32,000 nucleotides of DNA from Horticoccus luteus (GTDB taxonomy: Bacteria > Verrucomicrobiota > Verrucomicrobiia > Opitutales > Opitutaceae), in the NCBI RefSeq assembly GCF_019464535.1, contig NZ_CP080507.1, positions 1,350,001 to 1,382,000 of the forward strand, read 5' to 3'. Every line of letters begins with the position of its first letter. Positions within the stretch are counted from its first letter, which is position 1. The notes below the pieces were generated by a model. That model was given only the letters and a program-made list of their open reading frames with translations. It was not told where the DNA came from and searched no databases. Shown here piece after piece: positions 5,617 to 20,399 of this stretch. The position numbers were made by a program, and so were the translations under genes.

Positions 5617-6477
5617 ATGCTCGGGCTGCCGAAAGGCAGTTTGGAGGAGTCCACCAAAAGCTTGTTTGCGAAAGCCGGCTGGAAAATCACGACCAGTTCG
5701 CGTTCGTATAAGCCGTCGATCAACGATCCGGAGCTGGATGGTCGCTTCATTCGCGCGCAGGAGGTCAGCCGTTACGTGGAGCACGGCTTCTTCGATTGCG
5801 GCCTGACGGGTTACGACTGGATTCAGGAAAACGGGTCGGACGTCGTTGAGGTGTGCGATTTGGTTTACAGCCGGGCCTCGGTCCTGAAATCGCGCTGGGT
5901 GCTGTGCGTGCCGGAGGCCTCGGACATCACGAAGCCGGAGCAGCTCGCAGGGAAGCGGGTGGCGACGGAGCTCGTGGGCACGGTGAAACGGTATTTCGAA
6001 AAGAAAGGCGTGTCCGTCGACGTGGAGTTTTCCTGGGGCGCAACCGAGGTGAAAGTCCCCGACTTGGTGGATGCGATCGTCGACATCACGGAGACGGGGA
6101 ATTCGATTCGCGCGAACAAGCTGCGCATCATCGATACATTGCTGGAAACGAACACGAAACTGATCGCGAACAAGGCGAGTTGGGCGAATCCGGCGAAGCG
6201 GAAAAAGATCGAGACGATCGCCCTGCTGTTGCGCGGCGCGTTGGAGGCCGAAAGCAAGGTGGGGCTGAAGATGAATCTGCCGCGCACGGCGCTGGATGGC
6301 GTCGTGAAGGCGCTGCCGTCGTTGCGCAATCCGACGATTTCTCAATTGAGCAATGTCGAATGGGTCGCGCTGGAGACGATCATCGACGAGAATGTGGCGC
6401 GGGAAATCATTCCGCAGCTCAAAGAACTCGGAGCGGAGGGAATTGTTGAATATCCGCTGAACAAGGTCGTGTATTAA
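5617..6477 (+). CDS. hisG: ATP phosphoribosyltransferase (long form with C-terminal regulatory domain)
   Basis: ORF 5557-6477. ATG 5617 gives the typical MLGLPKGSLEE start. Motifs DCGLTGYDW, DAIVDITETGNSIRANKL, and a HisG_C-like tail ending GIVEYPLNKVV. Confidence 0.9.
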   Translation: MLGLPKGSLEESTKSLFAKAGWKITTSSRSYKPSINDPELDGRFIRAQEVSRYVEHGFFDCGLTGYDWIQENGSDVVEVCDLVYSRASVLKSRWVLCVPEASDITKPEQLAGKRVATELVGTVKRYFEKKGVSVDVEFSWGATEVKVPDLVDAIVDITETGNSIRANKLRIIDTLLETNTKLIANKASWANPAKRKKIETIALLLRGALEAESKVGLKMNLPRTALDGVVKALPSLRNPTISQLSNVEWVALETIIDENVAREIIPQLKELGAEGIVEYPLNKVVY

Positions 6478-6480
6478 GGC

Positions 6481-7425
6481 ATGAAAAAGAGACGCACGAA
6501 TCTGCCGGGTGGCGCGGCCTACAGCCGGCCGGCGGTGGCGACGAAAACGGTCAAGCTCGGGCTGTTGCAACACGCCTGCTCGGGGGATGCGGCGGCGAAC
6601 TTGAAGACGACGCTCGCGCTGGCGGAAAAGGCGGCGAAACAAGGCGCCAACATCATCTGCACGCAGGAGCTGTTTTGTTCGCAGTATTTCTGCCAGAGCG
6701 AGGATCACGAAAATTTCAAACTGGCGGAGCCCATTCCCGGACCGAGCACCACGGCGTTTCAGAAGATCGCGAAAAAATATGGCGTGGTGATCGTGGCGTC
6801 GTTGTTCGAACGGCGGGCGAGCGGGCTTTATCACAACACCGCGGTGATCATCGATGCCGACGGTGCGCTGCTCGGCATTTACCGGAAGATGCACATCCCG
6901 GACGATCCGCTCTACTACGAGAAATTCTATTTCACGCCGGGCGACACTGGGTTTCGCGCGTGGGAAACGAAATTCGGCAAGATCGGCGTGCTCATCTGCT
7001 GGGACCAGTGGTATCCGGAAGGCGCGCGACTGACGGCGATGCAAGGGGCGGAGATTCTGTTCTATCCGACCGCGATTGGCTGGCATCCCGGCGAGAAGGC
7101 GGAATACGGCGAAAACCAGCACGGCGCATGGGAAACGATTCAGCGCAGTCACGCCGTGGCGAACGGTTGTTTCGTCGCGGCGGTGAACCGCATCGGCACG
7201 GAAGTGCTGAAGCCGGTGGGCGGCCCAGGCATCGAGTTCTGGGGGCAGAGTTTTGTCGCCGGCACCAGTGGCCAGATTCTCGCCAAGGCCAGTGCGGACA
7301 AAGAAGAAGTGCTGATCGTGCCGATCGAGCTCGGCAAAGTTGACGTGACGCGCACGCATTGGCCGTTTCTGCGCGACCGGCGGATCGATGCTTACGGCGA
7401 TCTGACCAAGCGTTTTATCGACTGA
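6481..7425 (+). CDS. aguB: N-carbamoylputrescine amidase (carbon-nitrogen hydrolase family)
   Basis: 314 aa. Nitrilase-superfamily E-K-C context (ICTQELF, YRKMHIPDDP, GVLICWDQWYPE). Highly AguB-like stretch YYEKFYFTPGDTGF. Followed directly by aguA. Confidence 0.85.
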   Translation: MKKRRTNLPGGAAYSRPAVATKTVKLGLLQHACSGDAAANLKTTLALAEKAAKQGANIICTQELFCSQYFCQSEDHENFKLAEPIPGPSTTAFQKIAKKYGVVIVASLFERRASGLYHNTAVIIDADGALLGIYRKMHIPDDPLYYEKFYFTPGDTGFRAWETKFGKIGVLICWDQWYPEGARLTAMQGAEILFYPTAIGWHPGEKAEYGENQHGAWETIQRSHAVANGCFVAAVNRIGTEVLKPVGGPGIEFWGQSFVAGTSGQILAKASADKEEVLIVPIELGKVDVTRTHWPFLRDRRIDAYGDLTKRFID

Positions 7426-7501
7426 GAATTTGCGGCGTCGGAACACCGGTGCGCGTGCGAACGCGTCCGGGCGGCCGCTGCAGACTCGCGTGCAACACTC
7501 C

Positions 7502-8569
7502 ATGGCAACTCGAAACTCCCGGCCCCGAAAATCAACCGCCACGCCGGCCGCGCTCGGCTTTCGCATGCCGGCGGAATGGGCGCCGCAGGCGGCCGTCTGG
7601 TTGTCGTGGCCGCACAAGCGTGCTTCGTGGCCCGGACAGTTTCGGCCCGTGCCGTATGCGATGGCGAAGATCGTCGCCGAGATCTCGCGACGTGAGGACG
7701 TGCGGATCAACGCGGCGGCGGCGTTGCACGCACGAGCGAAACGGTTGTGCACCGCAGCCGGAGCAGACATGGCGCGGGTGACGTTTTACGATCATCCGAC
7801 GAACGATGCGTGGTGTCGCGATCACGGCCCGATTTTCGTGAAGCACACGAAGACCGGGGAAGTGGCTTTGACCGACTGGCGCTACAATGCTTGGGGCGAC
7901 AAATATCCGCCTTACGATTTGGATAACGAGATCCCACCGAGCATCGCGCGGGCGTTGGAATTGCGCCGGTTCGAGAACGACATGGTGCTCGAAGGCGGGT
8001 CGATCGACGTCAACGGGGAGGGGCTGCTGCTGACGAGCGAGCAATGCCTGTTGAACAAGAATCGCAACCCGCAGCTCACCCGCGAAGAGATCGAGCAGAA
8101 CCTGCGCGATTTTCTGGGCGTGCAAACTGTGCTCTGGGTCGGCGATGGCATATTAGGCGACGACACGGACGGACACATTGACGACATCACGCGTTTCTTC
8201 CGCGCGGACGGTTTTATCACGTGTGTCGAAGCGAACCGGCGCGACGCCAATCACAAGATTCTCGAGGAGAATCTGGAGCGGTTGCGCGGTTTCCGGACGC
8301 CGGCGGGGAAGCGGTTTGAGATCGTCACACTGCCGATGCCGAAGCCGCTCGCGTTTCAGGGGCAGCGGGTGCCGGCGAGTTACGCGAATTTTCTGATCAT
8401 CAATGGCGCGGTGCTGGTGCCGACGTTCCAACAAAAGAAGCGCGATGCGGAAGCGTGCGAGATCATCGGTGACTGTTTTCCCGGGCGCGAGGTCGTGCCG
8501 ATCGACTGTTACCATTTGATTTGGGGCCTCGGGACCTTGCATTGTCTTTCGCAACAACAACCCGCCTGA
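7502..8569 (+). CDS. aguA: agmatine deiminase
   Basis: ORF 7430-8569; ATG 7502 chosen (MATRNS...MPAEWAPQ). Motifs WCRDHGPIF, EGGSIDVNGEG, DTDGHIDD, SYANFLIINGAVLVPTF, and catalytic Cys in GTLHCLSQQ. Confidence 0.9.
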   Translation: MATRNSRPRKSTATPAALGFRMPAEWAPQAAVWLSWPHKRASWPGQFRPVPYAMAKIVAEISRREDVRINAAAALHARAKRLCTAAGADMARVTFYDHPTNDAWCRDHGPIFVKHTKTGEVALTDWRYNAWGDKYPPYDLDNEIPPSIARALELRRFENDMVLEGGSIDVNGEGLLLTSEQCLLNKNRNPQLTREEIEQNLRDFLGVQTVLWVGDGILGDDTDGHIDDITRFFRADGFITCVEANRRDANHKILEENLERLRGFRTPAGKRFEIVTLPMPKPLAFQGQRVPASYANFLIINGAVLVPTFQQKKRDAEACEIIGDCFPGREVVPIDCYHLIWGLGTLHCLSQQQPA

Positions 8570-13491: not shown

Positions 13492-13579
13492 GGAGAGGTG
13501 GCAGAGTGGTCTAACGCGCCTGACTCGAAATCAGGTGTGCCGCAAGGCACCGGGGGTTCGAATCCCTCCCTCTCCGCCA
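13492..13579 (+). tRNA. tRNA-Ser (anticodon CGA)
   Basis: 88 nt. Acceptor GGAGAGG/CCTCTCC, anticodon loop CTCGAAA, long variable arm (TGTGCCGCAAGGCACC), T-loop TTCGAAT, encoded CCA. Confidence 0.9.
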
Positions 13580-13610: not shown

Positions 13611-16600
13611 TCAACGTGATTTTTGCAGGGCGTGATGAAGGATCTTCAGCAACGCTTCGGCGGAATAGGGCTTGGGCAGAAAATCGGTGATGCCTGCGGC
13701 CGCGACCTTTGCAATGTACCCATTGGCGTTGAGACCGCTGGCCGCCACAATCAGCACCCGGGGATTGATCCGTTTCAGCGCGACGATCAGCGTAGGACCA
13801 TCCATCACCGGCATCATCATATCGGTGAGAACGACACTGATCTTGTCGCGATGCGTGGCGTAGATGCCGATGGCTTGGGCTCCATCTTCCGCCGTAAGCA
13901 CGCGGTAGCCGAATGCCTCTAGTGTTTGCTGAGTAATGCTCAGAATAGACACCTCATCATCAACCACCAATACCACCTCGCCTTGGCCGCGGATCAGTGC
14001 GTCTCGGGCCGACGAGCCGGAAGACTGTTCGGCATCTTCGCGGACTTGGACCGGGAGGTAGATTTTGAACGAGGTTCCATGGCCGACTTCGCTGTAGACG
14101 TTGATGATCCCGCCATGGCTGCGAACAATACCCAGCGCCGTGGAAAGCCCCAAGCCGGTGCCGCGACCGGTTTCTTTCGTGGTATAAAACGGTTCGAATA
14201 TGCGTTCGAGCACGTCGGGAGGCATACCGCATCCGGTATCTATAAAATTCAGGCAGACATATTGGCCGGCCGTCATTCCTGGGCTCATGACGGCATACTG
14301 TTCATCGATCTTCACCGCTTCCGCTTGGATAGTAATATCGCCGCCCGAAGGCATCGCGTCCCGCGCATTGACGGCCAGATTGAGGATGACCTGGTGCAAT
14401 TGCGTCGGGTCGCCTGTGATGAGCGGCAAATCAAGGGGCAGCTTGGTGTGACAGCGAATATTTTTTGGAAAAGTAACCTCAATCAGGCTCTGAACATCGC
14501 GCACGATATGGTTGAGCTTAACGGCGATGCGCGCTCCTTCGACCCCGCGGGCGAACGATAAAACCTGTTTGACCAGATCGGTTCCGCGCCGGGCGCTTCG
14601 CTCGATGCTACCGATGACCATGGCAGTATTTTCGTTTTGAGGGCCCATGCGGAGTAATTCCACCCCCATCAAAATGGGAGAAAGCAGATTGTTAAGATCG
14701 TGGGCGATGCCGCCGGCCAAAGTGCCGATGCTTTCCATCCGCTGGGCCCGCAAAAATTGCTGCTCAATTTTCTTCTGGGCCGTGATGTCGACGTCGATCG
14801 TGAGAATGGACTCAATCTTGCCTTGGTCGTTCTTTTGACCGCGCCACTGCCCAGCGACGACGACGAGTTCTCCCGCTTTATTTTGCTTTTTTACTTCGCC
14901 ACTCCAAGCGCCCTGCTGCTCGATTTGACGAATGGCTTCTTCGTACACGGAGGGCTCGGGCTGCAACAGTTCAATCAAAGACTTACCGATCGCCTCCTCT
15001 GCTCGCCAGCCGTACAGATGTTCCGCGCCTTTGCTCCAGAATTTAAGCCGGTGATTCGGATCTTGTACAATAATCGCCACAGGCGCCGCATCGATCAGGG
15101 CCGCCTGCTCCGACAGGCGCGCGTGATTGCGCCGGCGTTCGGTCACGTCTTGTGCCAGAGCCAGGCGCGCCGGTCGGCCGTTGAGCACGACCGGTTCGGA
15201 GGAAACCTCCACCGCAATAATGTCGCCCGATTTTTTGCGGTGCATGCGCAAGCCCCGCAAATGGCCCGCGTTGATGAGTTTTTTGGTCGAAGATTCTAGC
15301 TCCGACGAATCTTCCGGCGCGCGGATATCAAGCACTGTCATTTGCAGGAATTCATCCCGCGTATAGCCATAGTGGCCAATTGCAGCGTCGTTCACGTCAA
15401 GAAAGCGCAGCGTGGCCATGTTATAGGTCCACATCGGCAGCGGATTACTGACAAAGAGCAGGCGATATTGCTCTTCGGAACGACGCATTTGCTCCGTCGC
15501 CCTGATACGCTGCATCGACGCGGATAAGTTTTCCGCGACGATTTCCATGTTATGAAAGGCGGACTCGGTGAAAGCATCGACCTGTTGGGCGCCTACTTGG
15601 AGCAAACCCAGAGCAATCGGGCCGTCATGTAACGGAATCAACATCAAGGCGTGCACACCTGACTTCAGCGTCGCAACCGTGTCGACTCGCTCGTCCGGCC
15701 GGTCCGCCCGCCAGAAGATTGATTGAAGCGTGGTTAAGACGATGCTTGCAGGCCCTTCCGTCCGAGGGCGGCGTCCATGCAGGGTCGGCTCCAGCAGCCC
15801 TGTCGCCGCGAGACAGGCCAATTCGTCGCCTTCCACAAGTTCAATGGAAACTCCGTCGACGGTTAAGAAGTCAGTCACTCGTTTCACCACCAATTTCAGC
15901 AGGTCCTCTAACGAGATATTGCCGTGCGCGATCTCCTGGAGAATGCCGACGATTTTGATCAGATCCTCGTGCGAGCGGCTGAGCTCCAGTTCCGTTCGCT
16001 TGGCCTGATCGATATCCTGAACGGCGCCTTGGATTTTAGTAATTACGCCTTCTTGATTGCGCACGGCCTCTCCAGAGGTGGAGATCCAGATGCTCTTTCC
16101 AGTGGCGGCCGTGATTTGCAGCTCGAGTTCGAACGGATCTCCATGCTGGCGACACGACTCGATCGCCTGACGGATAACGGGCCGTGCTTCCGCCGCGTGA
16201 TAGTTGATCACTTCGTCGAGCGTAGGCTGATGGCCCGGCGGTTGTCCGTGGAGCGCGCATACTTCCTCCGACCAATAGCAAAAGCGTTGGCCGAGCGAGA
16301 GGGACCAGGCACCGACTTTGGCCAAACGACCGGCCATCCTCATTTGCGAATGCTGTGAGCGGATCTTTTCTTCGGCCATTCTTCGATCGCGAACGTCATC
16401 GAAATAGCAAAGCAGGTAGGATTTCTCGTCGTGCGTGAAGGGAACGAGCCAGCAGTGCAGCCATATCTCGCGGCCGAAGGAATTCAGTGATCGGATTTCC
16501 AGGTCCGTTGTCTGGCCGGTCGTCAGCACGGTGAGCGCCGCCGCAGGGAGTTCGGTTTGCTTCCAGACTTCAATACTATGAAAATTTTGGCTCTTTAATG

Positions 16601-17738
16601 CCGCCACGTCGGGAGCGCCGAGCACCTGCGCACTGGCGTCATTGGCCATCACAATTTCCCCCGAGGCCTTGCAGACAATAATCGCCAACGGCGAGGACGC
16701 GAACAGCGTCTGACTGAATCGCAGGGCTTCCTCCGCGAGGCGCTCGGTCTCTTTGCGCTGCGTGATGTCCTGACAGGTGCCGACGGCCCTTACCGGGGCG
16801 TCTGCATCATCAAACTGCACGCGCCAGATTTCCTCCACCATCTTGGTGCGGCCGTTCCGCAGGAGAATGCGATGTTCGATCGAATGGCGATCGGCGGTCG
16901 TGAACGAAGAGCGGAGGGCGTCATCCACGCGCTGGCGGTCATGCGGGTGCACCAGGGCGAGAAAGTCCGCGTGCGTCGGCTGGAATTGATCGGGGCGTGT
17001 TCCAAAGATGCGGTGGGTTTCCTCCGACCAAACGACGGTCATCGTCGCTATATCCGTTTCCCAACTTCCCACTTTGCCCACTGCCTGAGCCTCGGCCAGC
17101 CGCTGCGCGAGGCGTCGTTGCCCCTGCTCTTGTTCGCGAAGTTGGATTTCGGTGCGATGTCGTTCCGTTATATCCACGTGCATCACGACCACGCGGGCAC
17201 GGTCGCCTGCGTCCACGGGACTGACCACGAGGCGAAACCACATTGTCTGAGCGGGCGTTTGACAGGGGTATTCAATCGAAAAGCCCGCCATGGTGCCTTC
17301 CATTACAGCGCGGATTCCGCGGGCGACCGCGGGTGCTTCCGCCGCGTGCGGGTCTGTCGCCAGATCGCAAATCTTGAGGTAGTCAGCGCCCAAGCCGAAG
17401 TCCGGCATCTGCAAGCCGTTGGCTCGACCGAACGTGCGCCACGCTTCGTTGACCACGAGAATTCGGCCGTGCGCGTCGAGCAAAGCGATGTGTGCGGGAA
17501 AAGAATCGAGGATGCTTGTCAGCGTCTGAGAGGACAACCCCTGCAAAAATTGGCCATTGACTGGCTTACGTTGCGCGGCCGCCAGCAACAGGGGATGGCT
17601 TTGGGGGGCCGAAACGGCATCGACTTGCTTTCCAATGTAATTTTGCAAGGCCGCTTCCGCGTCGGCGAGTTGCTGCATCAGTTTTGCGAGGGTCTCGTCG
17701 GCTGCGCCCGCGGAATCGTTGGGGAGGGCGGAGTTCAT
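13611..17738 (-). CDS. multi-PAS/GAF hybrid sensor histidine kinase with C-terminal receiver
   Basis: 1375 aa. N-terminal coiled-coil. At least six PAS-like modules (e.g. WETDIATMTVVWSEETHRIFG, AWSLSLGQRFCYWSEEVCALHG, YGWRAEEAIGKS). One GAF-like segment. H-box GGIAHDLNNLLSPI. ATPase boxes NLAVNARDAM, DTGCGM, GTGLGLS. REC domain VLVVDDE...VLTDMMMPVMDG. The ATG overlaps the kaiB-like stop. Confidence 0.9.
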   Translation of the reverse strand: MNSALPNDSAGAADETLAKLMQQLADAEAALQNYIGKQVDAVSAPQSHPLLLAAAQRKPVNGQFLQGLSSQTLTSILDSFPAHIALLDAHGRILVVNEAWRTFGRANGLQMPDFGLGADYLKICDLATDPHAAEAPAVARGIRAVMEGTMAGFSIEYPCQTPAQTMWFRLVVSPVDAGDRARVVVMHVDITERHRTEIQLREQEQGQRRLAQRLAEAQAVGKVGSWETDIATMTVVWSEETHRIFGTRPDQFQPTHADFLALVHPHDRQRVDDALRSSFTTADRHSIEHRILLRNGRTKMVEEIWRVQFDDADAPVRAVGTCQDITQRKETERLAEEALRFSQTLFASSPLAIIVCKASGEIVMANDASAQVLGAPDVAALKSQNFHSIEVWKQTELPAAALTVLTTGQTTDLEIRSLNSFGREIWLHCWLVPFTHDEKSYLLCYFDDVRDRRMAEEKIRSQHSQMRMAGRLAKVGAWSLSLGQRFCYWSEEVCALHGQPPGHQPTLDEVINYHAAEARPVIRQAIESCRQHGDPFELELQITAATGKSIWISTSGEAVRNQEGVITKIQGAVQDIDQAKRTELELSRSHEDLIKIVGILQEIAHGNISLEDLLKLVVKRVTDFLTVDGVSIELVEGDELACLAATGLLEPTLHGRRPRTEGPASIVLTTLQSIFWRADRPDERVDTVATLKSGVHALMLIPLHDGPIALGLLQVGAQQVDAFTESAFHNMEIVAENLSASMQRIRATEQMRRSEEQYRLLFVSNPLPMWTYNMATLRFLDVNDAAIGHYGYTRDEFLQMTVLDIRAPEDSSELESSTKKLINAGHLRGLRMHRKKSGDIIAVEVSSEPVVLNGRPARLALAQDVTERRRNHARLSEQAALIDAAPVAIIVQDPNHRLKFWSKGAEHLYGWRAEEAIGKSLIELLQPEPSVYEEAIRQIEQQGAWSGEVKKQNKAGELVVVAGQWRGQKNDQGKIESILTIDVDITAQKKIEQQFLRAQRMESIGTLAGGIAHDLNNLLSPILMGVELLRMGPQNENTAMVIGSIERSARRGTDLVKQVLSFARGVEGARIAVKLNHIVRDVQSLIEVTFPKNIRCHTKLPLDLPLITGDPTQLHQVILNLAVNARDAMPSGGDITIQAEAVKIDEQYAVMSPGMTAGQYVCLNFIDTGCGMPPDVLERIFEPFYTTKETGRGTGLGLSTALGIVRSHGGIINVYSEVGHGTSFKIYLPVQVREDAEQSSGSSARDALIRGQGEVVLVVDDEVSILSITQQTLEAFGYRVLTAEDGAQAIGIYATHRDKISVVLTDMMMPVMDGPTLIVALKRINPRVLIVAASGLNANGYIAKVAAAGITDFLPKPYSAEALLKILHHALQKSR

Positions 17739-18034
17739 CGAGAGAGCAGATTCAGCCCTAAAATGGTTCGGGGTTTGTCGGGCTCAACCAAACGACCGAT
17801 AAAGTTTACAACCTGCGAGAAACCCGCGCGGACCAAGATCGGCGTGACGAGGATGTCGCCGCGCACGGCTGCTTCGATCCGCAGCAGCAGGTCGATGGAT
17901 TTGGTTCTCTGTTTTCCGGGCATGTTACGCTCGTCAAACGCGTGCAGATTGCCTTGCGCCAAGCCGGGGTTCGGGCCGCCTCCGGCGATGAACAGCCGGA
18001 AATGATAAAAGGGTGTTGGCCGGGCCCAAGTCAT
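17735..18034 (-). CDS. KaiB-like (thioredoxin-fold circadian clock protein family) protein
   Basis: ORF 17735-18229; ATG 18034 gives 99 aa. It aligns by eye along the whole length with cyanobacterial KaiB: YHFRLFIAGGGPN vs YILKLYVAGNTPN, SIDLL vs VIDVL, DILVTPILVR vs KILATPTLAK, IGRL...ILGLNLL vs IGDL...LIGLDLL. The stop overlaps the kinase ATG (ATGA 17735-17738). Confidence 0.75.
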   Translation of the reverse strand: MTWARPTPFYHFRLFIAGGGPNPGLAQGNLHAFDERNMPGKQRTKSIDLLLRIEAAVRGDILVTPILVRAGFSQVVNFIGRLVEPDKPRTILGLNLLSR

Positions 18035-18304
18035 TGTCTTCAGAGATGCTCGCGAATTTCTCAGCGCCAGATGTCGCTTCGTCTCACGTGAATCAAAGCG
18101 CCGTTTTAATAACCGAGAGCAATCAAAGGAGTCAAACAGCATAACGGACTGGGAAACATGATTTGGACACGAGCGAATACGCTCTATAAGGAAGAACCCT
18201 TCGTATCGCCTGAGGTGCCTTTGCGACATGGCGCGTTGATCACCCGGCTGGAAGCCCGTAAGTTGAAAGGGTCGGTGGGGCCACCCTTTGTTCCGCGCGG
18301 GAGG

Positions 18305-18327
18305 AACATTGGTTCGTGACCAATATT
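18305..18327. promoter_or_regulatory. inverted repeat AACATTGGT-tcgtg-ACCAATATT upstream of the kaiB-like gene
   Basis: 9-bp arms with 8/9 complementarity and a 5-bp spacer, about 270 nt upstream of ATG 18034 within a 438-nt lower-GC intergenic region. Confidence 0.3.
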
Positions 18328-18472
18328 CCGACCGACCACACCGTCATTGACGTGCGCGGTCCGCTTGACGGATTAAACAATATTTCTTGCTGAATTCCGG
18401 CATGGCCCACTTTTGCGTCATTCGGCCGGCCGACAACCGGTGTGCCGGCCGATGAATTGTGCTTCAGTCACA

Positions 18473-20167
18473 TTACGCTTCGGCAAGTCCGTCGGAATCG
18501 GTCTCGGACCACGTTTCGGCAAGGTGTTGTTTTATGCGCTCTGCGGGCAAACGGAAAACGTAGGCCAGCCACATGACCAACGCCGAAAATACAGCGATGA
18601 CGGGGATGGCGGTGTCCATGCCGAGCCAGCCGAGGTTGCCGGCGTGCTGCGCAGGACCGGGGTAGGCACCGAGCCAACTGATCAGTGCGAGGCCGCCCAG
18701 CCACGGAATGACCCAAAAGCCGGCGCGAAATTCCAAACTCGGCGTGCGTTTGCCGTAGAGCGACTCATGCACGAAGAGCACGATCAAACCCAGCACCACC
18801 GCCAGCGACAGCTTCCACTCCGTCTCCCAACCGGACCAGTAAACGATCAGATTGGACGAGAGAAACGCCAGATACGAAATAATCAGCGCGCCGGGCAGGC
18901 GGAACGGTCGCGACTGGCCGGGCAATTCTTTGCGGAGAGCAATCAACACCAGCGGGCCGGAGCCGAACGACAAGACGGTCGCGGACGTCACAAATCCCAC
19001 GAGCTTTTGCCAGCCAGGGAAGGGGAGGAAGAAAACCAGGCCGACGACAAAACTTAGAATCACGCTGACCCAAGGCACGCCATGGCGGTTGACCTTGGCC
19101 AGGCTGGCGGGGGCATTGCCATTGCGCCCCATGGCGTAGGAGAGGCGAGCCGTGACGGTCGTGTAGATAAGCCCGGTGTCGGCTGGAGAGACGAAGGCGT
19201 CAATATAGAGCAGCAAGGCGAGCCACGTGAGGCCCATGGTGGTTGCGAGCGTGGCGAGCGGGCCGAAGGCGAGGGCTTTGTCGCTGATGCCGCCGCTGAA
19301 CGTGGTGCCAATGTGCGCCCAGCCGTTGGCCAATGCGGACGTGGGCAGCGCGCCGATGAACGCGATCTGCAGTCCAATATAAATGACGGCGCACAGACCG
19401 ATGGAACCGAGGATGGCGATGGGGACGTTGCGACTGGGGTTGTCGGTTTCACCGGCCAACTCGACGCCTTGGCGGAAGCCGAGATAGGAGAAAATGATGC
19501 CGGCCGTGGCGATGGACGAGAACACGCCGTGCCAGCCGAAAGGCATGAAACCACCCGCGGCGGCGGTATGAAAATGAGCGGCTTTGAAATCGGTCAGGAG
19601 AAAGGCGCCGACCACCACGCAGATGATGGCGAGTTTCCACCACACGAGGGCGTTGTTCAACCGGGCGAACCAGCGGATGCCGATCACGTTGACGAGGCTG
19701 AACAGAAACATCATCCCCGCCGCGACGAAATAGCCCGGCGTGGTGAGCACCGGGACGCCGTCCTTCAACACTTGCAGCCAGGGAACGTAATTGGAGCCGT
19801 ATTGGAGGGCGGCTTCCACTTCGATGGGGGCCGTGGACGCGGCGGCGAGCCACGTAATCCAGCCGGTTGTGTAACTGGCAAAAGAGCCGAACGCAAAATG
19901 GGGGAAGCGCACCACGCCGCCCGAGACGGGAAACATCGTGCCCAGTTCGGCATAGGCGAGGCCGATGAACAGAATCATAATGCCGCCGATCAGCCACGAC
20001 AGGATCGAGGCGGGGCCGGCTTGCTCGGCGGCGTTGAGCGCACCAAACAGCCAGCCGGAACCGATGATGGACCCGACGGCGGTGAACAGCAGGCCGATGA
20101 CGCCCACGTGGCGCTTCAACCGTTGCTGGGGAGCGGGGCTAGGGACTGGGTTTGAGCGTGAAGCCAT
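18473..20167 (-). CDS. APC-superfamily amino acid permease
   Basis: ORF 18473-20383; ATG 20167 (MASRSNPVPS...). GVIGLLFTAVGSIIGSGWLFG and YAELGTMFPVSGG are signatures of amino-acid permeases. Hydrophobic helices are seen by eye along the whole length. Confidence 0.85.
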   Translation of the reverse strand: MASRSNPVPSPAPQQRLKRHVGVIGLLFTAVGSIIGSGWLFGALNAAEQAGPASILSWLIGGIMILFIGLAYAELGTMFPVSGGVVRFPHFAFGSFASYTTGWITWLAAASTAPIEVEAALQYGSNYVPWLQVLKDGVPVLTTPGYFVAAGMMFLFSLVNVIGIRWFARLNNALVWWKLAIICVVVGAFLLTDFKAAHFHTAAAGGFMPFGWHGVFSSIATAGIIFSYLGFRQGVELAGETDNPSRNVPIAILGSIGLCAVIYIGLQIAFIGALPTSALANGWAHIGTTFSGGISDKALAFGPLATLATTMGLTWLALLLYIDAFVSPADTGLIYTTVTARLSYAMGRNGNAPASLAKVNRHGVPWVSVILSFVVGLVFFLPFPGWQKLVGFVTSATVLSFGSGPLVLIALRKELPGQSRPFRLPGALIISYLAFLSSNLIVYWSGWETEWKLSLAVVLGLIVLFVHESLYGKRTPSLEFRAGFWVIPWLGGLALISWLGAYPGPAQHAGNLGWLGMDTAIPVIAVFSALVMWLAYVFRLPAERIKQHLAETWSETDSDGLAEA

Positions 20168-20399
20168 GGGAAGAAAAGCGGGTGCGGCGAACGACGTGGC
20201 GTGGGGGACGCAGAATTTTTTGGCGGGGCGAAAGGAAAGCGGGCCGGCGCGGGTGGCCTGACCACAAAGCGCGAACACGCTGGGGAGGCGAGGCGGATTT
20301 TTGAAGCGCTGGGGCGGTCCGCTGCGGCTATCGCCGATCGGACGACGCGGCGGAGAGTGAGCTTGGCGTCGCTTGCACAGCACGGATAGATCTTGGCGG

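Follow-up and report, generated by a model that had tools for sequence, protein, structure and literature searches.

A 32,000-nucleotide stretch of the genome of the soil verrucomicrobium Horticoccus luteus (hereafter the window; all positions are counted from its first letter) carries a 99-codon gene for a KaiB-like protein whose end overlaps the start of a gene for a 1375-residue hybrid sensor histidine kinase. On balance, we favor the view that this pair descends from the widespread kaiC-kaiB-PAS/histidine-kinase operon as a lineage-specific form without kaiC, in which the KaiB-like protein would serve as a KaiC-independent partner of the kinase. The two halves of this reading are of unequal strength. 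That the pair represents the tail of a kaiC-kaiB-kinase operon, with kaiC absent locally, is very probable from sequence comparison; that the small protein is still at work as a KaiC-independent partner of the kinase is a tentative suggestion. The KaiB assignment, which is in UniProt, and the layout with kaiB before the kinase, as the tail of kaiCB-kinase operons, are already known. Two things are new, the pairing of an exceptionally diverged KaiB with a locus that has lost kaiC, and a Kai-linked module now recognized at the N terminus of the kinase.

Both genes lie on the minus strand. The KaiB-like open reading frame (ORF) occupies 17735-18034 (99 codons plus a TGA stop) and the kinase ORF 13611-17738, and the stop codon of the first (TGA, 17737-17735) overlaps the start codon of the second (ATG, 17738-17736) in an ATGA at 17735-17738. 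A preliminary description of this DNA had proposed that this overlap couples translation of the two genes, and its coordinates were confirmed. To place the pair among its relatives, metagenome contigs were scanned with the N-terminal module of the kinase, and six-frame ORFs of 80 loci (L097-L176) were searched with KaiB and KaiC hidden Markov models (HMMs); these are the loci that most resemble the window, so the fractions are indicative rather than unbiased. At 61 of the 80 loci, kaiC-kaiB lies directly upstream of the kinase module. Four further loci have kaiB but too little upstream DNA to judge kaiC, three or four have kaiB and no kaiC within 7-12 kb (L112, L113, L157 and, in part, L104, where only ~450 bp lie upstream of kaiB), nine or ten have neither gene, and one (L156), with the module at the contig end, was not assessable. 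An NTGA overlap joins the kaiB stop to the kinase start in 61 of 69 loci and the kaiC stop to the kaiB start in 49 of 61. A kaiC-B-PAS/histidine-kinase operon has been described in Rhodopseudomonas palustris and Rhodobacter sphaeroides (PMC4794148). A free KaiB encoded before a sensor kinase, which the preliminary description had regarded as unusual, is thus the ordinary arrangement, and across the loci surveyed both this position and the ATGA-type coupling are norms of the kinase family.

The window resembles these operons in having kaiB directly upstream of a PAS sensor kinase and coupled to it by the same NTGA junction, in the homology of the kinase N-terminal module, and in that the complete operon, including a giant homologue of the kinase, is found in a relative within the Opitutaceae. 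It differs from them in having no kaiC within 32 kb, with a permease gene and a 438-bp spacer at the position of kaiC, and in encoding a KaiB more diverged than any of the 67 kinase-linked KaiBs examined.

Some of the surveyed loci depart from the common layout in other ways. Two tandem kaiC-kaiB pairs precede the kinase in L137 (3474-7956), a second kaiB occurs at a contig edge in L130 (2-262 and 5975-8001), and the position of kaiC in L113 is taken by receiver-domain-like ORFs, as judged by their N-terminal sequences only. In the otherwise canonical locus L110 (5666-7666), kaiC is present as two adjacent ORFs (5666-7117 and 7121-7666), which could reflect an in-frame stop, a sequencing error or a pseudogene.

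The kinase contributes evidence of ancestry through its N terminus. Residues 1-75 (17514-17738, minus strand) make up a Kai-type element common to proteins encoded after kaiB elsewhere; a long helix (residues 9-35) is followed by 'GKQVDAV...PLLL' and a linker, and then by the first PAS domain (residues 77-195; 17154-17510, minus strand; Pfam PAS_4), which carries 'FPAHIALLD...VNEAWRTF'. Together, residues 1-75 and this PAS domain constitute the module linked to kaiCB. In its AlphaFold2 model, the helix spans 9-35 and a weak hairpin 41-51, and the PAS fold at 70-190 is confident, with a predicted local distance difference test score (pLDDT) of 86-96 for the first PAS domain; Foldseek searches with the module returned generic PAS, LOV, PYP and FixL matches only. 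The succession of a helix and an '(E/Q)(V/I)DA(V/I)' motif is common to the window kinase and the proteins encoded after kaiB. Many kinase homologues show the family form of the module, 'I..LV..L...E.EL..LTGGQVDAV....G..YLLR.AQ', followed by the PAS sequence 'ILNALPAHIALLD..G.I..VNEAWRRF'. When scored with an HMM built from homologues, the window module reached 114 bits over positions 7-134, and the 61 kaiCB-linked members 124-204 bits; by this comparison it is a low-scoring but clearly intact, full-length match. Homologues on other contigs include a 2361-residue kinase encoded after kaiC-kaiB in an Opitutaceae metagenome-assembled genome (MAG) and a 954-residue kinase encoded after kaiC-kaiB in another genome. 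As the module accompanies kaiC-kaiB at ~85% of loci, we regard it as a likely candidate for the docking element of Kai proteins across many phyla. A limited look at the literature found no published description of a Kai-linked N-terminal kinase module.

Within the first PAS domain, an alignment of the family (A5) contains invariant or nearly invariant residues, Y120, C124, E156, Y157, C159, W167 and H187 ('EYPCHSPTE.RWF'). The window kinase retains both cysteines, and the His after C159 is a Q there. These conserved residues hint at a cofactor-binding or redox-sensitive site.

The small protein is related to KaiB, although the relationship is weaker than the preliminary description had stated. 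Its alignment with KaiB over its whole length held up, with 33% identity to Synechococcus elongatus KaiB across 92 residues in BLASTP, while the thresholds of the curated family models were not reached, an outcome that the preliminary description had named as counting against its claim: the Pfam KaiB model (PF07689) gave 12.4 bits (cut-off 27, E 0.14), and the NCBIfam models TIGR02654 and NF006798 gave 26.3 bits against 110 and 22 against 145. A phmmer search of 1.84 billion representative proteins (E<=1e-3) returned 77 matches, namely a 98%-identical relative and, at E 7e-9 to 1e-3, 73 KaiB-sized or tandem-KaiB proteins, one 162-residue protein with a KaiB-like C-terminal part and two repeat proteins (P0002 and P0045), which were dropped as spurious. 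In an alignment of the small protein with 29 of the phmmer matches and S. elongatus KaiB (A1), all 30 other members belong to Pfam KaiB; no stretch of 7-10 columns in KaiB is conserved enough to drive a scan for loci. All ten matches in a sequence search of the PDB were KaiB chains covering residues 9-97, with no SasA or thioredoxin among the ten. A word-indexed search found a single match, the 98%-identical relative, and single-protein scans of genome and metagenome contigs gave none that was confirmed among the matches listed, which is not counted as absence. The nearest bona fide KaiB relatives on long contigs (P0308, P0260 and P0267) are all encoded in kaiC-kaiB-X operons with 4-nucleotide overlaps, where X is a PAS/GAF histidine kinase, a PAS protein or a HisKA_3 kinase. 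From these matches we conclude that the 99-residue protein is best described as a highly diverged member of the KaiB superfamily and not as a canonical KaiB.

The extent of this divergence was measured against KaiBs encoded next to the kinase family. With an HMM of 67 kinase-linked KaiBs, the window protein scored 49 bits, as compared with 113-175 for the 67 themselves and 92 for S. elongatus KaiB; its median identity to the 67 is 24.5%, versus 55% among them. The window protein is thus further from the kinase-linked KaiBs than the cyanobacterial protein is. It differs at 18 of the 36 positions that are conserved in at least 80% of kinase-linked KaiBs. Of these changes, eight are conservative and mostly exchange one hydrophobic core residue for another; the radical ones include two at otherwise invariant positions (C to D34, P to I53) as well as S to P23, E to K45 and R to A55. 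Residues kept are F12, R13, L14, A17, G18, N22, A26, N29, L30, D48, A56, T64, P65, L67, G80, L82, L92 and G93, so that structural Gly, Pro and Asp residues are retained along with the beta1 motif 'FRLF.AG', 'PN', 'A..NL', 'TP.L', 'G.L' and the C-terminal 'LGL.LL'. Full-length alignment to KaiB requires a single 2-residue gap, which argues that no frameshift has occurred since divergence.

Prolines that matter for the KaiB fold switch may be affected in part. Cis-trans isomerization of P63, P70 and P72 limits fold switching in Thermosynechococcus elongatus KaiB (PMC11665890). In the full-length alignment, P63 corresponds to the retained P65, and P70 and P72 are replaced by F72 and Q74; a local BLASTP alignment offers a second C-terminal register, in which 'EPDKP' stands opposite the canonical 'EPRP' across a 13-residue gap, so that proline loss is a statement that depends on the alignment. 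Compared with cyanobacterial KaiB (PF07689; 4KSO, 2QKE and 5JYT), the window protein shares ~33% identity, full length and motifs, but it falls below curated thresholds, has P70 and P72 replaced in the full-length alignment and is accompanied by neither KaiA nor a local KaiC.

The absence of kaiC from the locus was supported by three approaches. No KaiC domain was found by Pfam in the large ORFs of the 32-kb window, tblastn with three KaiC proteins gave a best E of 0.35 and no kaiC there, and a KaiC HMM applied to all of its six-frame ORFs detected neither kaiC nor a remnant. The position that kaiC holds in the canonical operon is occupied by a 438-bp spacer (18035-18472, minus strand) without KaiC similarity, which contains upstream ATGs at 18142 and 18229. 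Beyond it lies the upstream neighbor of the KaiB-like gene, a gene for a 636-residue amino-acid permease (18473-20383, minus strand; AA_permease_2, E 3.6e-43). The preliminary description was accurate on both counts, in reporting no kaiC or kaiA nearby and a permease upstream instead. It had also raised the objection that the pair might be just the tail of an already described, dispersed kaiBC-kinase operon with a kaiC elsewhere in the genome; homology to the tail of a kaiCB-kinase operon is borne out, and the part about a kaiC elsewhere is a separate matter.

That part corresponds to a dispersed Kai system, in which KaiC would be encoded elsewhere in H. luteus, the KaiB-like protein would act through it and the kinase would read the KaiC-KaiB complex. 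A genome survey found bacterial and archaeal KaiB only together with full-length KaiC (PMC5520375), which speaks for such a system. So do the three or four other kaiB-kinase loci among the 80 that are without an adjacent kaiC: their KaiBs are canonical, at 139-168 bits, showing that separation of kaiC and kaiB does occur. Against it, the window protein lies further from the 67 KaiC-linked KaiBs than cyanobacterial clock KaiB does and has lost invariant or near-invariant residues of KaiC-linked KaiBs (now D34, I53, P23, K45 and A55), whereas continued selection for KaiC binding should have preserved them. Furthermore, no second H. luteus kinase was present among the 120 best homologues, many of which are unnamed entries. 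We consider a dispersed system unlikely. The opposite and stronger proposition, that H. luteus has no KaiC at all and that its fast-evolved KaiB-family protein is a dedicated, KaiC-independent regulatory subunit of the sensor kinase, is somewhat doubtful. If the genome truly lacks KaiC, the locus would be an exception to the pattern of KaiB occurring only with KaiC (PMC5520375), and if the protein is also such a subunit, it would be the first KaiB working outside any KaiC system and would be direct evidence that KaiB touches the N-terminal module of kinases encoded after kaiCB.

Comparison with a second strain bears on the extent of the small gene. The NCBI model is a 135-residue hypothetical protein, K0B96_05580 (WP_220164765.1), that starts at 18142; UniProt names the product 'KaiB domain-containing protein' (A0A8F9TVW3). 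A 99.3%-identical sister strain (contigs L001 and L002) has the same order of permease gene, small ORF and kinase gene, with the ORF and the overlap intact. In this strain, a 2-bp insertion near 18105, between the ATGs at 18142 and 18034, shifts the NCBI start into another frame, and a GTG stands at the site of the ATG at 18229. It follows that the conserved ORF is 99 codons long, which is also the length given by the gene caller of the sister-strain contigs. With regard to the possibility, noted in the preliminary description, that translation starts elsewhere, this supports the 99-residue start, and the NCBI model is probably too long on this comparison. The annotation would be corrected in two respects, to 99 codons instead of 135 and to a KaiB relative instead of a hypothetical protein.

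The same pair of strains provides a measure of constraint. Substitutions were found at four of 297 sites in the KaiB-like gene (two synonymous and two non-synonymous), at seven of 438 in the spacer, which also has the indel, at nine of 2166 in the kinase gene and at four of 1512 in the permease gene. The rate in the KaiB-like gene is that of the spacer, ~3-4 times that of the flanking genes (13/3678 for kinase and permease together; Fisher p 0.03), although the counts are small. This pattern fits relaxed constraint, and a recent slide of the gene into decay is possible. It bears on the alternative that the KaiB-like protein is a functionless relic, its ORF being kept as a translational leader for coupling to the kinase start at the ATGA, or being too recent for disruption.

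The substitution pattern is one of several observations that count against the reading we favor, and most of them speak for a relic. The protein falls below all curated KaiB thresholds. An AlphaFold2 model from a 115-sequence alignment has a mean pLDDT of 59, with values of 65-75 in the beta1-alpha1-beta2-alpha2 part and 38-58 in residues 62-99; the best PDB matches of this low-confidence model in Foldseek are KaiB, fold-switched forms first, all with E > 1e-3. No sigma-70-like promoter turned up between 13300 and 18700, a range that takes in the kinase start. Members of the kinase family are also encoded with no kaiB beside them, in the nine or ten surveyed loci and in a third homologue on a long contig (P0093), which indicates that the kinase does not strictly need kaiB. 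In DNA of 60% GC, open frames are cheap, as illustrated by a 377-residue antisense ORF (16872-18005, plus strand) opposite the kinase and KaiB-like genes, which is not to be taken as a gene. In addition, the negative searches for kaiC cover 32 kb of a 4.32-Mb genome, and we infer, rather than observe, that KaiB binds the kinase, that it affects the kinase and that it does so independently of KaiC. (A 92-residue ORF before P0093 had been considered as a second diverged KaiB and was ruled out, being without KaiB similarity.)

A relic nevertheless appears quite unlikely. There is no frameshift or stop in the gene despite a divergence exceeding that between cyanobacterial and kinase-linked KaiBs, the core changes are mostly conservative with structural Gly, Pro and Asp residues and the 'TP.L' motif retained, and all detectable similarity is KaiB-specific and full length. 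We read this as a fold that probably stayed under selection and a surface that may have been freed or retargeted.

The pair could also be taken for a split SasA-like module, as the preliminary description had suggested: a SasA-type kinase would have lost its N-terminal KaiB-fold domain to a gene of its own. SasA does combine a KaiB-like domain and a kinase in a single chain (PMC6769508), and in the window the KaiB-like gene abuts the kinase gene, so that in both cases a histidine kinase is accompanied by a fold of the KaiB type. The likeness ends there: the fold is fused in SasA but a separate polypeptide in the window, the kinase architectures differ and no sequence link was found, the PDB matches of the small protein being KaiB chains only and never SasA. 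SasA is not known to have PAS, GAF or receiver domains, whereas the window kinase has all three, including many PAS domains and a real receiver. It also starts with its own conserved helix/PAS module, and dozens of kaiC-kaiB operons encode this module behind kaiB. This module, together with the KaiB-only matches, argues for ancestry in a kaiC-kaiB-kinase operon and not for fission of SasA, which we consider highly improbable.

Our preferred reading, a kaiC-less derivative with a KaiB-like partner of the kinase, suggests the following mechanism. The 99-codon gene would be the descendant of the kaiB of the ancestral operon, with kaiC lost from the locus. Its product differs from the KaiB family at half of the conserved positions, and the gene has retained its reading frame, core residues and ATGA coupling. 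Made alongside the kinase through translational coupling, the KaiB-like protein would bind the N-terminal helix/hairpin/PAS module as a small accessory subunit and, once bound, might bias the balance of kinase and phosphatase activities in the absence of KaiC. Signals would be supplied by the six or seven PAS domains and the GAF domain, and output would leave through the kinase's own receiver to a partner. A KaiC-independent role, which the preliminary description had envisaged, is still a possible one.

Contacts of this kind have precedents in other Kai systems. CikA is a GAF-kinase-pseudoreceiver protein whose pseudoreceiver binds KaiB. In Synechococcus elongatus, the N-terminal PAS domains of KidA are a binding site for KaiB in its fold-switched form (PMC9478674). 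KidA and CikA are precedents for direct KaiB binding, and the window kinase resembles them in having N-terminal PAS, GAF and a C-terminal receiver. The cyanobacterial contacts, however, act within a KaiC-based oscillator, and the window receiver keeps its acceptor Asp and is thus not a CikA-type pseudoreceiver. A reduced Kai module combined with a two-component kinase is also found in Pseudomonas, where KaiC binds the N-terminal PAS of the neighboring kinase (bioRxiv 10.1101/2022.01.26.477890). The N-terminal PAS is the docking site in these modules, and their reduction is reciprocal to that of the window: KaiC is kept and KaiB absent in Pseudomonas, whereas KaiB is kept and KaiC absent locally in the window. 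A locus with KaiB and a kinase but no KaiC is a simple place to ask whether KaiB touches the kinase directly, and with what effect, and the answer has a bearing on how non-cyanobacterial KaiC-KaiB timers signal to adjacent kinases.

The remainder of the kinase matches the multi-PAS/GAF hybrid kinase with its own receiver that had been read from the translation, as Pfam confirmed. Its sequence is that of WP_220164763.1 (100% identity), from Horticoccus luteus (Opitutaceae, Verrucomicrobiota). Pfam assigned PAS_3, PAS_9, PAS and PAS_4 in several copies, and the NCBIfam PAS S-box model matched seven stretches. All of the following features are on the minus strand. After the first PAS domain comes a PAS_3 domain (residues 235-321; 16776-17036), with more PAS sequence between residue 321 and the GAF domain (residues 609-740; 15519-15914). 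Two PAS domains identified by Pfam and NCBIfam (residues 752-986; 14781-15485) adjoin the catalytic core (residues 1005-1231; 14046-14726), which comprises HisKA (1005-1065; H-box 'AHDLNNLL') and HATPase_c (1109-1231). The receiver (Response_reg, residues 1256-1367, E 1.5e-21; 13638-13973) keeps its acceptor Asp ('VLTDMMMP'). The H-box, the ATP-lid motifs and the receiver Asp (in 'VVLTDMMMP') are legible in the translation.

Downstream of the kinase gene lie a convergent tRNA-Ser gene (13492-13579, 32 nucleotides from the kinase gene end), a DUF983 gene, tsf and rpsB. When the tsf neighborhood was compared in six Opitutae MAGs, rpsB-tsf-DUF983 was the only conserved part, and the kinase and KaiB-like genes were not at the tsf locus in any of the six, which thus added no orthologous pair to that of the sister strain. 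This comparison indicates that the pair is lineage-specific, and since synteny ends after DUF983, the block of kinase, KaiB-like and permease genes may be a lineage-specific insertion or rearrangement beside the tRNA gene. Rfam and promoter/terminator scans of the region gave nothing informative.

Two minor observations concern the surroundings of the pair. A MAG labeled 'Akkermansia muciniphila' (L008) encodes Tsf and RpsB that are 73-79% identical to those of the window and shares the rpsB-tsf-DUF983 order, so that the label is doubtful. Elsewhere in the window, an agmatine deiminase gene (PAD_porph, 7430-8569) adjoins a carbon-nitrogen hydrolase gene (6481-7425); by its look this is a putrescine-synthesis pair, unrelated to the KaiB-like protein and the kinase.

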